Shown here in pieces: positions 463-3,757 of a DNA stretch of 64,000 nt (positions are counted from its first letter, which is position 1; each line of letters opens with the position of its first letter). The translations under genes and the position numbers were made by a program. Below the pieces are notes generated by a model. It saw nothing but the letters and a program-made list of their open reading frames with translations, was not told the origin of the DNA and made no database searches. Source of the stretch: Alphaproteobacteria bacterium (GTDB taxonomy: Bacteria > Pseudomonadota > Alphaproteobacteria > Rs-D84). The DNA is taken from contig JAGBXO010000003.1 of the NCBI GenBank assembly GCA_017629245.1, forward strand, positions 1,897-65,896, in the 5' to 3' direction.

Positions 463-1122
463 ATGTCTAAAAATAATACGGTATTAAATTTTACAGAACG
501 CAGTGAAGCGCAGTTTTTGACCAGTTTGGCTGCCGCATTATCAAACTATGATTTGTCGGGTAAAAATTTTCGTAAATTTGGTCCACATTTATTCAGTCTG
601 ATGATTGATAATTATCAGATTCAGGTTGCTCAAACCGGGGTATTTTATTATCCAAACAAATTTCAAAAATTCCTGGGAAATGCCAAGTATGCTTTTGAGC
701 CAGGTAAATACGAACGATACGAAGTTTGCATATATGAAAATCGTTATCCTATGCACAGACTGGATTCTGACGAGTTGTTATTAGGCACCCCGGTTGATGA
801 TGGTGATACATGGGTATGGCGCGGTAATTCTAATACATTATTTATGAATGCAACAATGGCCACGGACATTGGTGAATACCGTACTTCATGTTTTGATGGT
901 CGCCCACAAGAGATGTTTTCTCGGCAAAATGCACATTTGTTCAGTCCTGCAAAACATCTATATCATATTCTTGGCGACCAGGCGGCTAAGGTAACGGATA
1001 AAAATATAATAGATAAAACACCATATGATATAAAGCCTGTACGTGATAAATATGAAATTGCAGCACATCGTGAACAGTTATTACATAAAGTAAAAGATGA
1101 AATTTTTCATCGAAAAAAATAA
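463..1122 (+). CDS. hypothetical protein, paralogue family A (shares 'FEPGKYERYE' and 'KQNAHLF' motifs with 3134-3757)
   Basis: 219-aa ORF following the terminator. It has full-length similarity to the ORF at 3134-3757 (N-terminus, FEPGKYERYE, GTMAS/ATMAT, KQNAHLF blocks). No known domain recognised. Confidence 0.6.
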   Translation: MSKNNTVLNFTERSEAQFLTSLAAALSNYDLSGKNFRKFGPHLFSLMIDNYQIQVAQTGVFYYPNKFQKFLGNAKYAFEPGKYERYEVCIYENRYPMHRLDSDELLLGTPVDDGDTWVWRGNSNTLFMNATMATDIGEYRTSCFDGRPQEMFSRQNAHLFSPAKHLYHILGDQAAKVTDKNIIDKTPYDIKPVRDKYEIAAHREQLLHKVKDEIFHRKK

Positions 1123-1135
1123 CCACGGATAAATC

Positions 1136-1981
1136 ATGAAGGCATCCAATATTTATAACCAAGAACCCGCCGGCAGTATGCCACCGCAGTTATTCAAGTA
1201 TATTGATATAAAGAATATTCGGGCTGCAACGGGTCAGTTTATAAAGTTTATGAATGATATATCATTGCAGCTGCATACTAAATTATCAGATGTTCAGCAG
1301 ACCAAGGATAGTCTAAAAAAAATCAAACTAACCGCACCAAAATTATTCGGACAAGATGTAAAACTGGAATTTATTGATTCAGGCACAATGGCATCTGTTT
1401 ACAAAATAAAAATAGGCGACGAGACATTTGCATTAAAAATTAATCGTCAAAATTACTATCATCGTTCAGATGAACTGGATGCAATTAAATTGCACCGCAG
1501 TGCACGTAATTTGATTAACAAGGCTTATATCGGTGCGCCATTTGAATATGATGACCAACAGTATTCATGGTTGCTGTCGGATTTTGTATCACGCGACCGT
1601 CCCAACAGTTTTGAACGCGCCAATGAAAAATTACTGTACGCATACCTGACCAAGGGGATAGATTATTCCGATGGTTCCCCGTATAACTTCAAAGATGGGA
1701 AAATTATTGACTTGGCCGGATTGTCGCGTGGCAATACCTTTATTTCACTTGATCGTGCCCAAACAGATATTGTAAAAAAATTGGTTCATTGTATGCGCAC
1801 AGACGATATGGCCGGCTTTAATAAATTACTGGCAAAAAATCCAACTGTTATCCAGTATATGTATATCAGTATGATTATGAAAAAATTTCAAATGCCAAAA
1901 AGATTTCAGCCATATTTTGCCGCGGTCACAATTGCGCATGAAAACCTAAAACATGCCCAGAATAATTCGCGTGACATTTAG
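1136..1981 (+). CDS. protein-kinase-fold protein (eukaryotic-like/atypical kinase candidate)
   Basis: 'IDSGTMASVYKIKIGDETFALKI' resembles a Gly-rich loop plus the beta3 A-x-K. 'DGSPYN' fits the D-x4-N catalytic loop and 'DLAG' sits about 9 aa later where DFG would be. It starts 13 nt after the previous gene, suggesting an operon. Confidence 0.5.
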   Translation: MKASNIYNQEPAGSMPPQLFKYIDIKNIRAATGQFIKFMNDISLQLHTKLSDVQQTKDSLKKIKLTAPKLFGQDVKLEFIDSGTMASVYKIKIGDETFALKINRQNYYHRSDELDAIKLHRSARNLINKAYIGAPFEYDDQQYSWLLSDFVSRDRPNSFERANEKLLYAYLTKGIDYSDGSPYNFKDGKIIDLAGLSRGNTFISLDRAQTDIVKKLVHCMRTDDMAGFNKLLAKNPTVIQYMYISMIMKKFQMPKRFQPYFAAVTIAHENLKHAQNNSRDI

Positions 1982-2027
1982 TTCGTTTTTGTTATAGTGA
2001 CAGCCCTGTATCTTAAAAAGGTAAATT

Positions 2028-2327
2028 ATGGATTTGGAATCTTTGCATAATCGTGTGCTGTCTGGAATCACAGAAGAACAGTTTAACCAAGAATATTTTT
2101 ATTTAACAATTCCACAGTATAAACTAAAAAACATACTGGAATATCGTTGTGATAAAAATATTTTAAATGGAAAAAATTGTTTCAAGTGTGCATACAATAT
2201 GTACCCCAACAGAAAAACGGGTACAACATGCAATATATTACATTGCGCATTTCATAACAAGGTAGAAGGTAATATATTTATCAATCATCCACAAAAAAGT
2301 ATTTGTGCATTTTGTAAAACGCGCTAG
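2028..2327 (+). CDS. small Cys-rich protein (zinc-ribbon-like C-x2-C pairs), unknown function
   Basis: 99-aa ORF with about 9 Cys in the C-terminal 60 aa (CFKC, CNILHC, CAFC). AT-rich codon usage. Confidence 0.4.
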   Translation: MDLESLHNRVLSGITEEQFNQEYFYLTIPQYKLKNILEYRCDKNILNGKNCFKCAYNMYPNRKTGTTCNILHCAFHNKVEGNIFINHPQKSICAFCKTR

Positions 2328-2346
2328 TCCAAGGAAAGCTGTGATA

Positions 2347-2544
2347 ATGAAAAAAAATAAAAAAAGAAGTTTAGTTGATTTAATTGCCACTGCGACATTT
2401 GTTGGTGGGCTGTGTGGTATAATATATTCTGGCGCGGCCGATTTTGAAAATGAGCAAACCAGAACCCAGACAATGGCATCGTCGTGTATGTCAACATTGG
2501 CTGCTGGGTTAATTTTTACAATGCGCAGTGATAAACAGCATTAG
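2347..2544 (+). CDS. small membrane protein (MKKNKKR... with one TM), hypothetical
   Basis: Internal ATG at 2347 gives a Lys-rich N-terminus followed by the hydrophobic segment 'LIATATFVGGLCGIIY'. The upstream part of the ORF overlaps the previous gene. Confidence 0.3.
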   Translation: MKKNKKRSLVDLIATATFVGGLCGIIYSGAADFENEQTRTQTMASSCMSTLAAGLIFTMRSDKQH

Positions 2545-2546
2545 TT

Positions 2547-3056
2547 TTATATTATTACCCCCATTTTACTTTTTGCAAATTCCCCAATAAGGAAAGCAAC
2601 GATTGACACTGTTACGCAAATTATAAGCATTTCAATTGCATGTCGCCACCATTTACGGTTGTGGGCGCGTCTGATACAAAAATTACACAGAAAAATCATC
2701 ATCACTGCAATTGCAAAAGAAAACAACAACGCAATATGCGAATTATCTGATATGAAAAAAGGAACCAGTAACATAATGCATGTTGCCATATATGCGCAAC
2801 CTGTTGCGATTCCTGCGCGCCATGCATATTTATTGCGGTTTGTTTTTTCAGCCAAATATTCTGATGCACCCATAGACAGGCCTGCGGTCACAGATGCTAT
2901 AATCGCAGACAATACAATCAGTTTTTGTTGTGCCAATGCAAAGGTCAGTCCTGCCACCAGACCGGTCAGCGACACCAATGCATCGTGCATCCCCAGTATG
3001 ATTGCACCGGCATAAAATTTCTTGTTTTGCATACGCGCCATGCTATCACAGGCCAT
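2547..3056 (-). CDS. VIT1/CCC1-family (DUF125) membrane iron/manganese transporter-like protein
   Basis: 'GMHDALVSLTGLVAGL' and 'GASEYLAE' are typical of the VIT family. Multiple TM segments; 169 aa. Confidence 0.65.
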   Translation of the reverse strand: MACDSMARMQNKKFYAGAIILGMHDALVSLTGLVAGLTFALAQQKLIVLSAIIASVTAGLSMGASEYLAEKTNRNKYAWRAGIATGCAYMATCIMLLVPFFISDNSHIALLFSFAIAVMMIFLCNFCIRRAHNRKWWRHAIEMLIICVTVSIVAFLIGEFAKSKMGVII

Positions 3057-3133
3057 GCGCTATCTGCCACAGGAATAAAAACCATTGACATTTCATCTTA
3101 GTGTTCTAATATTTCTAAAAAAGAGTATCGTAT

Positions 3134-3757
3134 ATGTTATCAAAAACACAGCCTTTGAGCGCGCAACAAATATCAGCCGCAGATTTTTTAAAAAATTTAG
3201 TGGTGTTGTTGCGGGCTAAAAATTTATCCAAACTGGATTTAAGGAGCGATGGCAATAAGCATAAATTTCACAGCGTGCTGGTTGAAAATTATGAAATAAA
3301 CATTGCGCGCACACCGGTATATGCATATCCCACCAAGTGGTATCGCGTTTTCTGTTGGGGTAAATGGAAGTTTGAGCCAGGCAAATACGAGCGTTATGAG
3401 CTGAATATATCAGAAAATATTCATAACAAACGCCAGGTTGACTATTGTGATGAATATCATGATGGTACCCCATTAGGGAATGTAATTATCCAGGCTGGTA
3501 CAATGGCATCTAATGACGGGTATTATCTGACAAGAAATATATCATTAAATTATGATTCTGATAATTATGAAGAATTGTACATAAAGCAAAATGCACATTT
3601 ATTTGCAGCTGCGCGTGAATTGTATAATGTTTTGGATGCAGAATATGAACGCCGTCGCCGGGATTACAGATTGTATATATTGCCCGAATTAAAAGATGAA
3701 AATGCTCATGTTGGTATGCGTCGTCGTCTGATGGAAAGTCTGCAAAGAAAGTTATAG
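3134..3757 (+). CDS. hypothetical protein, paralogue family A (second copy)
   Basis: 207 aa. Collinear similarity to 463-1122, including 'KWKFEPGKYERYELNISEN', 'GTMASNDGYY' and 'KQNAHLFAAARELYNVLD'. Confidence 0.6.
   Translation: MLSKTQPLSAQQISAADFLKNLVVLLRAKNLSKLDLRSDGNKHKFHSVLVENYEINIARTPVYAYPTKWYRVFCWGKWKFEPGKYERYELNISENIHNKRQVDYCDEYHDGTPLGNVIIQAGTMASNDGYYLTRNISLNYDSDNYEELYIKQNAHLFAAARELYNVLDAEYERRRRDYRLYILPELKDENAHVGMRRRLMESLQRKL

Follow-up and report, generated by a model that had tools for sequence, protein, structure and literature searches.

A two-copy orphan protein family of Candidatus Enterousia and its relatives, possibly exported, and the basic C-terminal tail that it has in common with unrelated lineage-specific proteins

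Near the start of a 64,000-nucleotide stretch of alphaproteobacterial DNA (contig JAGBXO010000003.1 of assembly GCA_017629245.1, positions 1,897 to 65,896; hereafter the window, to which positions refer unless a related locus is named) lie two homologous genes, paralogue A and paralogue B. Their products are members of an orphan family, soluble, basic, of alpha+beta type and approximately 210 residues long, found only in Candidatus Enterousia and its close relatives of the order Rs-D84. The family is real, ordinary in its genetic behaviour and genuinely uncharacterised. Most of its members end in a short basic tail, and tails of this kind also terminate Cys-rich mini-proteins and enzymes resembling APH and HD proteins. 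We put forward, as a tentative reading that is possible rather than probable, that proteins of the A and B type are exported and directed at a partner cell by a basic C-terminal signal of the VirB/D4 kind.

The family, its relatives and its predicted structure

A preliminary description of the window had claimed two homologous open reading frames (ORFs) at 463-1122 and 3134-3757. Both are present, and BLASTP aligns 171 residues of their products (36% identical, E=3e-28), sequence blocks FEPGKYERYE and QNAHLF being common to the two. The proteins are identical to MBO5739630.1 (A) and MBO5739635.1 (B), in records titled "MAG: hypothetical protein [Alphaproteobacteria bacterium]" (MAG, metagenome-assembled genome). 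Ratios of non-synonymous to synonymous substitution (dN/dS) against orthologues are 0.11-0.13 for A and 0.13-0.14 for B, to be compared with 0.12 for KIN, the kinase-like gene that follows A, and with 0.09-0.15 and 0.04-0.06 for two genes downstream of B, encoding a PagL-like and a large Cys-rich protein (BIG736), respectively. Purifying selection of this kind implies that A and B are both real genes; no positive selection was seen on either (dN/dS 0.11-0.14). Between the window and the related locus L001, identity is 59-62% for the family and 57% for the small Cys-rich protein CYS99, versus 74% for the neighbouring VIT1-family protein, 79% for KIN and 89% for BIG736; the family thus diverges faster than its VIT1, KIN and BIG736 neighbours in the same genome pair.

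The family is rare and taxonomically confined. A word-indexed search of 5.8 billion proteins recovered 13 clusters, and an exhaustive profile search of 1.84 billion representatives yielded 24 matches, the complete ones 192-226 residues long. When one genome per species was scanned (185,579 species), 18 loci carried the family, each in a MAG whose title gives either Candidatus Enterousia sp. or an unclassified alphaproteobacterium, the latter mostly named for ruminant hindgut samples; a metagenome scan added two further loci of the same type. The proposed lineage specificity is therefore borne out by 24 representatives in 1.84 billion, with every named genome match falling in Enterousia or in an unclassified gut alphaproteobacterial MAG. 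No homologues were found outside the Enterousia/Rs-D84 lineage, neither as a conserved housekeeping family nor in syntenic positions in free-living Alphaproteobacteria, which the preliminary description had named as observations that would speak against its proposal. A tblastn search of phage and plasmid records gave zero matches to suggest an origin there, and no fusion of the family to VIT1 or to any other domain occurs among the detected relatives.

Nor is the family known under another name. Neither A nor B matched any family above threshold in the Pfam, NCBIfam, PHROGs and PADLOC profile libraries; a set of 29 members gave only scattered matches by one or two members each, none with E below 5.9e-4; and sequence and profile comparison with PDB sequences returned no usable match. 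The remark that the proteins match no recognisable family can accordingly be extended to all five of these collections. The structure prediction that had been suggested as a check gave, for A, a confident AlphaFold2 model (pLDDT 92.7, pTM 0.89, from a 29-sequence alignment), in which an N-terminal helix (residues 10-27) precedes some nine antiparallel strands that form a sheet and are accompanied by two short helices, followed by two long C-terminal helices (157-176 and 196-218). Foldseek found no structural neighbour of this model in PDB or BFVD.

Conserved residues of the family are mostly polar (N50, Y51, T58, E84, R85, Y86, E92 and N93, followed by M132, A133, N156, H158, L159 and F160), a pattern that looks like an active or binding site more than a scaffold, as far as an alignment can suggest this. 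The proteins are hydrophilic, of soluble type and basic, with isoelectric points (pI) of 7.0-9.6, most of them 7.8-9.5, and inspection of the family alignment by eye revealed no hydrophobic, Sec-like N-terminus. A likeness to HIN-200 domains was considered and set aside: residues of approximately 121-153 of A (window positions of about 823-921) align at E=0.12, both HIN repeats of p204 fall on the same segment of about 40 residues, and one member matches the Pfam HIN model at 0.058. With neither HIN nor OB-fold among the Foldseek results, the likeness is treated as chance.

Each of the 18 assemblies that matched in the scan has one to three family genes, all at one locus, so that a comparison of copy number, also suggested beforehand, did reveal variation. 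A neighbour-joining tree resolves three clades, of which A-clade genes stand in a variable slot of the locus, B-clade genes follow the VIT1-family gene, and C-clade genes are the first of tandem pairs in L008, L012 and L018; members P0050, P0051 and P0056 are outliers to all three. Signals for expression are likewise conserved. Most of 17 extracted intergenic regions between the VIT1-family gene and the divergent family gene keep the motif CCACAGGAAT, placed 8-20 nucleotides upstream of a near-consensus promoter (TTGACA-N16-18-TAnAAT), and an AAGGA-like ribosome-binding site is present wherever the extract reaches the start codon. In the window this region measures 77 nucleotides. Its conservation would argue for steady expression of B. 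The -10 region (GTTCTAATATTTCTAAA) may bear a partial likeness to half of the Irr/ICE iron box of Alphaproteobacteria.

The C-terminal tail and the case for export

The tail was first noticed among the neighbours of the distant family member P0051 (locus L021, 288-7916), where unrelated small proteins end in KTR, KTK and the like. At that locus two complete proteins with signal-peptide-like N-termini lack it, a third such protein is truncated by the contig end, and 12 of the remaining 16 genes have a tail-like end. Counts for the source genome, made on the database gene calls (55 genes) with expectations derived from internal tripeptide frequency, indicate strong enrichment: K-[TQ]-[KR]-COOH terminates 7 of the 55 genes versus 0.048 expected, and a looser pattern 11 versus 0.24. 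All strict tails belong to Pfam-less genes (7 of 28, versus 0 of 27 Pfam-bearing genes; Fisher exact p=0.01), and the strict form is absent from the annotated ribosomal and housekeeping proteins of the window. The genes concerned are as follows.

Family locus: p64, up126 and CYS99
30098-30286: protein of 62 residues
31602-32297: protein of 220 residues
35992-36285: p83, a membrane protein of 83 residues
36642-37307: p221, 221 residues, weakly HD-like

The four genes at 30-37 kb were examined after the motif had been defined and so provide a partial independent check. Tail codons differ between genes, which argues that constraint acts on the protein, and the tail is kept in orthologues at 30-80% identity (up126, 18 of 18; p64, 5 of 6; CYS99, 4 of 4; TM65, a small membrane protein, 4 of 5). 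The 18 copies of up126 all end in R, with an R/K-x-R pattern that is often R-x-R-x-R; the four CYS99 orthologues all end in K[TI]R; and the tails of TM65 orthologues read KTR, KQR, KHR and RQK. Across all loci the strict tail is found in 11 of 174 gene clusters, and only the loose form in a further 17.

Within the family, [KR]-[QTNK]-K is the ending in clades A and C and in some members on the B side of the tree; the sequence of A closes with HRKK. Members of the subclade that includes the window's B are about five residues shorter at the C-terminus and end in L-x-R-[KSTQH]-L. The final 20 residues have a net charge between 0 and +5, with 28 of 29 members at +1 or more (A +3, B +2). The search for a positively charged C-terminus recommended in the preliminary description was thus rewarded by a defined terminal motif, common to unrelated lineage-specific proteins. 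The motif is statistically strong; its basic character hints at a possible function in export to a partner cell.

The setting is compatible with such a function. Candidatus Enterousia, widespread as an uncultured gut alphaproteobacterium in livestock, birds and humans, belongs to the uncultured order Rs-D84 and has genomes mostly below 1 Mb, without tricarboxylic acid cycle, respiration or standard uptake transporters; its describers infer an obligate symbiont or parasite that draws metabolites from other cells (PMC12306168). The suspicion of an endosymbiont-like genome was in this sense right, the host genome being reduced and partner-dependent. The same holds, as far as the window shows, for the claim that it bears a type IV secretion system (T4SS): a cluster of VirB8 (a weak match), VirB9 and VirB10 genes spans 56141-60902, directly beside secE-nusG-rplK-rplA-rplJ, and includes the following.

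56141-58756: VirB10/TrbI, unusually long (804-871 residues)
58590-60116: VirB9/CagX

Beyond these genes lie two Pfam-less genes of about 115 residues and a glycosyltransferase gene, without VirB11 or VirD4. Our literature search found no paper that ties Rs-D84 to type IV secretion.

The export proposal is drawn from four things taken together, namely the VirB8/9/10 genes, the partner-dependent lifestyle, the conserved basic tail on proteins without a visible Sec signal, and the recurrence of that tail on other lineage-specific proteins. The C-terminal signal by which the Agrobacterium VirB/D4 system recognises its substrates is hydrophilic and net positive (Vergunst 2005, summarised in PMC8525350). 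By analogy, the ancestral and main role of the family would lie outside the producer cell. Its members would be made without a Sec signal, recognised by their hydrophilic, positively charged extreme C-terminus, and handed over to an export machine, most plausibly a VirB-type T4SS with the VirB8/9/10 genes of the window, to act on a partner cell that supports this metabolically crippled bacterium. The products of A, KIN, CYS99 and the small membrane protein gene, if co-transcribed, may form a single exported or export-associated module, and B, minus its last five or so residues and the tail, may be a retained intracellular derivative. We infer all three central elements of this scheme: the tail as export signal, the T4SS as route, and activity in the partner cell. 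A broader version holds that K-[TQ]-[KR]-COOH (loosely [KRQ]-x-[KR]) tags the Enterousia-specific clients of one export or targeting pathway, probably a VirB-type T4SS, with the family as a core exported protein of unseen fold; this we consider doubtful.

Several observations weigh against the export of the family. VirB4, VirB11 and VirD4 were seen neither in the 64-kb window nor in the flanks that were examined. Definition of the tail motif was post hoc, which makes its p-values optimistic, and the motif also terminates small integral membrane proteins (TM65 and p83), for which the positive-inside rule could be explanation enough. The tail is missing from B and its subclade, and five related assemblies (L002, L007, L011, L017 and L019) have nothing but a tail-less copy at the sampled locus, which implies that the tail is not needed for the core function of the family. 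Tails occur in 6% (strict form) to 16% (loose form) of the gene clusters sampled, much for an effector set in a genome below 1 Mb. Finally, a fixed locus in all 18 matching assemblies, a conserved near-consensus promoter and a dN/dS of about 0.13 are of housekeeping type as much as effector-like, and overall an intracellular role fits the evidence equally well.

One form of such a role, itself tentative and possible rather than probable, is that of an abundant, basic, soluble protein of housekeeping type, indispensable to all Enterousia and for instance nucleic-acid- or ribosome-associated, in which the tail would be a feature of binding or stability. The locus lies about 1.6 kb downstream of the ribosomal RNA (rRNA) operon in all 18 matching assemblies; the genes are under purifying selection; the promoter and ribosome-binding site of B are conserved in most of the 17 intergenic regions; and tail-less copies of B type suffice in several assemblies. 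To the basic pI of the family may be added that of its neighbours p64 and up126, which are small, very basic, Cys-rich and reminiscent of ribosomal or RNA-binding proteins, with an acetyltransferase of the Acetyltransf_3 type adjoining, and the faint echo of a HIN-200 strand ("MFHATVAT") would point the same way, were it not itself treated as chance. On the other hand, no nucleic-acid-binding fold or motif was detected, and neither HIN nor OB-fold appeared in the PDB search with Foldseek; ribosomal and housekeeping proteins of the window lack the K-[TQ]-[KR] tail; and the family diverges faster and varies in copy number.

The typical profile of secreted effectors, which the preliminary description had seen in a duplicated, lineage-specific family beside a kinase-like protein, is therefore upheld in part. 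Lineage restriction, variation in copy number, the kinase neighbour, the T4SS genes and the basic tail all stand in its favour; the absence of the tail from B, the lack of a coupling protein among the genes found and the fixed locus under purifying selection do not.

Either outcome has consequences. A family restricted to one lineage, found in every checkable assembly and modelled with confidence yet with no known relative, is a handle on the lifestyle of Enterousia. If the tail is an export tag, it is an unusually simple, sequence-defined secretion signal and a rare instance of a short, defined signal of T4SS type; the whole secreted repertoire could be read from the genome sequence, and effectors would occupy a sizeable share of the genome of an uncultured gut symbiont. 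If it is not, the family is a clean target for structural genomics, possibly with a new fold, and the tail is a proteome-wide feature in need of explanation.

The locus, its neighbours and other regions of the window

The features at the family locus in the window are listed below.

2-316, plus strand: 3' part of up126, a Cys-rich basic protein of 126 residues truncated by the window start, ending in CPYRQKQR
378-411, plus strand: intrinsic terminator after up126, with a stem of 15 pairs, 6 of them GC, and then a run of T
414-442, plus strand: candidate promoter-like site upstream of A, TTGATA-N17-TAACAT (9 of 12 consensus matches)
463-1122, plus strand: paralogue A, 219 residues, A-clade, with basic tail (IFHRKK)
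1136-1981, plus strand: KIN, minimal kinase-like protein of 281 residues, lineage-specific, 13 nucleotides after A
2028-2327, plus strand: CYS99, 99 residues with 7 Cys, ending in CAFCKTR
2347-2544, plus strand: TM65, two-helix membrane protein; the ORF opens with GTG at 2305 and the called start is ATG at 2347
2547-3056, minus strand: VIT1-family gene (Pfam VIT1), short form of 169 residues
3067-3112, plus strand: control region between the VIT1-family gene and B, with CCACAGGAAT at 3067-3076, TTGACA at 3085-3090, a 16-nucleotide spacer and TAATAT at 3107-3112
3134-3757, plus strand: paralogue B, 207 residues, B-clade, tail-less, ending in LQRKL
3781-4458, minus strand: PagL-like lipid A deacylase (Pfam PagL, 48.5 bits versus a cutoff of 23), conserved downstream flank
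4530-6686, plus strand: large Cys-rich protein, 718 residues, Pfam-less, with a hydrophobic, signal-peptide-like N-terminus, conserved downstream flank

The kinase-fold gene, Cys-rich mini-protein and VIT transporter said to lie between the two copies were all found, together with the small membrane ORF, which is called as 65 residues in L023 and L001 and spans 65-79 residues depending on the start. The description of the patch as terminator-delimited did not hold: only the terminator at 378-411 is convincing, and terminator-like sites number 5 versus 3.8 in shuffled sequence. No Rfam match to an RNA element was obtained in positions 1-9100. An ORF of 155 residues at 3-470 (plus strand) was discarded as a shadow ORF that overlaps the true up126 gene in another frame, as well as the terminator; up126 is complete at 9474-9854 of L023 and has orthologues in 17 loci. 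Homology between up126 and CYS99, both small and Cys-rich, was not significant (E=0.14). The large Cys-rich protein (4476-6686 at its widest), 718-736 residues across loci and with 25 Cys, is the best-conserved gene of the locus (64-97% identity across loci of the genus); its N-terminal region is of low complexity, rich in R, T, A and N, with repeated "TNRANA...SRA" units. TM65, p83 and a protein of 107 residues from L021 look related by eye.

Mapping of 19 related loci by tblastn, combined with gene calls, reveals a conserved order. From left to right the rRNA operon is followed by the acetyltransferase gene, p64, up126, the variable slot and the VIT1-family gene (minus strand), beyond which come the family copy or copies, PagL (minus strand), the Cys-rich protein of 718-736 residues and UvrD (minus strand). 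The operon (16S-tRNA-23S-5S) is complete at 3485-8378 of L023, which places it about 1.6-6.5 kb before the first letter of the window. It accounts for the many related MAG contigs that break off 2.5-5 kb short of the family gene; an element of mobile or variable kind, suspected as the cause of these ends, was dropped as an explanation. The slot contains, in varying combinations, an A-clade copy, KIN, CYS99, TM65, a gene of 176 residues and one of 91 residues.

KIN itself has the features claimed for it. Seventeen homologues share G83, K101 (in FALKI), the pair D179-x4-N184 and D192 as invariant residues, with E113 nearly so; these are, as read from the alignment, the canonical kinase catalytic set. 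No kinase-clan model in Pfam scores above gathering threshold, FTA2 alone being listed at 23 bits versus a cutoff of 30.2. The single sequence aligns with the N-lobe of PKR (E=0.0067) and the KIN profile with STK25 (E=0.004), besides which only ribosomal protein L20 was matched by that profile in PDB. The label of kinase-fold neighbour thus stands on an intact catalytic set and on N-lobe alignments. Homologues fall into 28 clusters, all unnamed and restricted to this lineage. A further reading, which we regard as unlikely, makes the family a substrate, regulatory subunit or adaptor of KIN in an intracellular module for signalling or modification. A and KIN lie 13 nucleotides apart in the same orientation in the window, L001 and L003, and, from this spacing, are probably co-transcribed; both families are restricted to the same lineage; in the loci sampled KIN, its catalytic residues kept, occurs only here, with a family copy no more than a few genes away; and the family offers Tyr and Thr residues that are invariant or nearly so (Y51, T58, Y86). 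However, KIN is present in only about half of the loci sampled. The family occurs without it in L002, L004, L005, L007, L011 and L016-L019, and KIN occurs without an A-type copy directly upstream in L008, L010, L013-L015 and L020. That the two occur apart argues for a family function independent of KIN.

The VIT1-family ORF matches Pfam PF01988 in two stretches (71.1 bits versus a cutoff of 28.1) and is not an MbfA equivalog (NCBIfam score 26.5 versus a cutoff of 450). A family gene adjoins it, mostly in divergent orientation, in the window and in all but one of the 19 mapped loci; in the remaining one, L003, the contig stops short of VIT1, which is carried by the neighbouring contig L009. This adjacency, with CCACAGGAAT in an intergenic region of 80-115 nucleotides, invites the suggestion that the family acts in the cytoplasm, either as a partner of the short Fe/Mn transporter or as its regulator. 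In such a role it would parallel the soluble ferritin-like domain found at the N-terminus of the iron exporter MbfA. Conserved polar residues (E84, E92, H158, N50, N93 and N156) could in principle bind metal, and several small Cys-rich proteins are encoded at the same locus. Against this, the loci all come from one genus-level lineage, in which adjacency may be inherited. A rearranged type, found only in L005, L006 and L028, keeps the ancestral left side while everything beyond VIT1 is replaced, which argues that the adjacency is inherited and not independently maintained. For 8 kb upstream of P0051, a distant member, there is no VIT1 gene; and neither a helix-turn-helix, a known metal-binding fold nor a VIT1 fusion was found. 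We judge such a partnership improbable.

The slot is also where a defence or toxin-antitoxin island might be sought, in which the kinase would be the toxin or sensor and the family its antidote or effector; kinase-fold toxins and defence kinases are known. The stretch between up126 and VIT1 is indeed variable. In L002 (5661-7335) it is occupied by a type II restriction-modification pair (an ICEA-family endonuclease and a D12-class methyltransferase), which implies that the slot is a hot spot for insertions. L001, L016 and L020 have there the gene of 91 residues, whose product has a helix-turn-helix by eye only and no Pfam, PHROG or PADLOC match. Yet no gene of the patch gave a PADLOC or PHROG match, phage and plasmid homologues are absent, and the family is present in all 18 matching assemblies and not patchy, so that this interpretation appears very improbable.

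Some further regions may be recorded in their own right. Positions 30000-37400 have a low GC content (35-36% versus about 43% elsewhere) and are packed with lineage-specific genes, among them two tandem paralogous genes of APH-type, kinase-like character (32453-33190 and 33180-33926); exactly one APH paralogue bears the basic tail in each of three genomes compared, and the carrier varies. No homology of KIN to these tandem genes was found. Five large Pfam-less genes at 9542-16167 (429, 498, 399, about 402 and about 438 residues), several with signal- or membrane-like N-termini and with Lys-rich ends (GGKK, KKGS, EGSK, IKKK and VMKK), may encode an envelope complex of a kind unknown to us; the first is conserved in other Enterousia loci. 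Beside the most distant family members, L021 (1849-5216) and L022 (3-446) carry seven paralogous proteins of 98-145 residues, with an N-terminus of the form MNQELKKLILxIC and a C-terminal IYxxM...EQxR pattern; all but one of them also end in a basic tail. Their relationship to the family was rejected (hhalign probability 0.2%), and the neighbours at L021 gave no match to PHROGs.

Comparison with known systems

The closest parallel to the proposed export of the family is offered by the substrates of the Agrobacterium VirB/D4 system (VirF, VirE2, VirE3 and VirD5). In each case the host is alphaproteobacterial and has VirB8/9/10 homologues, the proteins lack a visible Sec signal, and the extreme C-terminus is hydrophilic with K or R at alternating positions. 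The VirB/D4 signal consensus that Vergunst is said to have given in 2005 is R-x(7)-R-x-R-x-R, and the R-x-R-x-R ends of up126 orthologues resemble it. The differences are equally plain. There is no similarity to the Vir effectors in sequence or fold; the tail described here is a short, nearly fixed terminal tripeptide in which the family prefers K over R; no VirD4 was identified; and B is tail-less.

Among kinases, KIN may be closest in kind to the minimal effector kinases of pathogens (OspG/NleH, HopBF1 and LegK of Legionella) and the atypical small kinases (Bud32/RIO and Kdo kinase). It has a core of about 200 residues, a Gly-rich loop, a VAIK-type Lys, D-x4-N and a DFG-type Asp, and it stands beside candidate exported proteins. 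Unlike these named enzymes, it has only marginal matches (PKR, STK25 and a sub-threshold FTA2), and its homologues are confined to one lineage.

The short likeness to HIN-200 (PYHIN) proteins, in which the family's "a-T-M-A-T-D-x-G-x-Y-R-t-x-v-F-D" is set beside the HIN "MFHATVATxxxFFxVKVFD", covers a single strand and is ascribed to chance. In its genome biology, the family comes closest to the orphan families of reduced-genome symbionts, such as the candidate effectors of Rickettsiales, in being confined to one lineage, duplicated, variable in copy number and devoid of known domains. It differs from these in being fixed, syntenic and under ordinary purifying selection, neither patchy in distribution nor positively selected.

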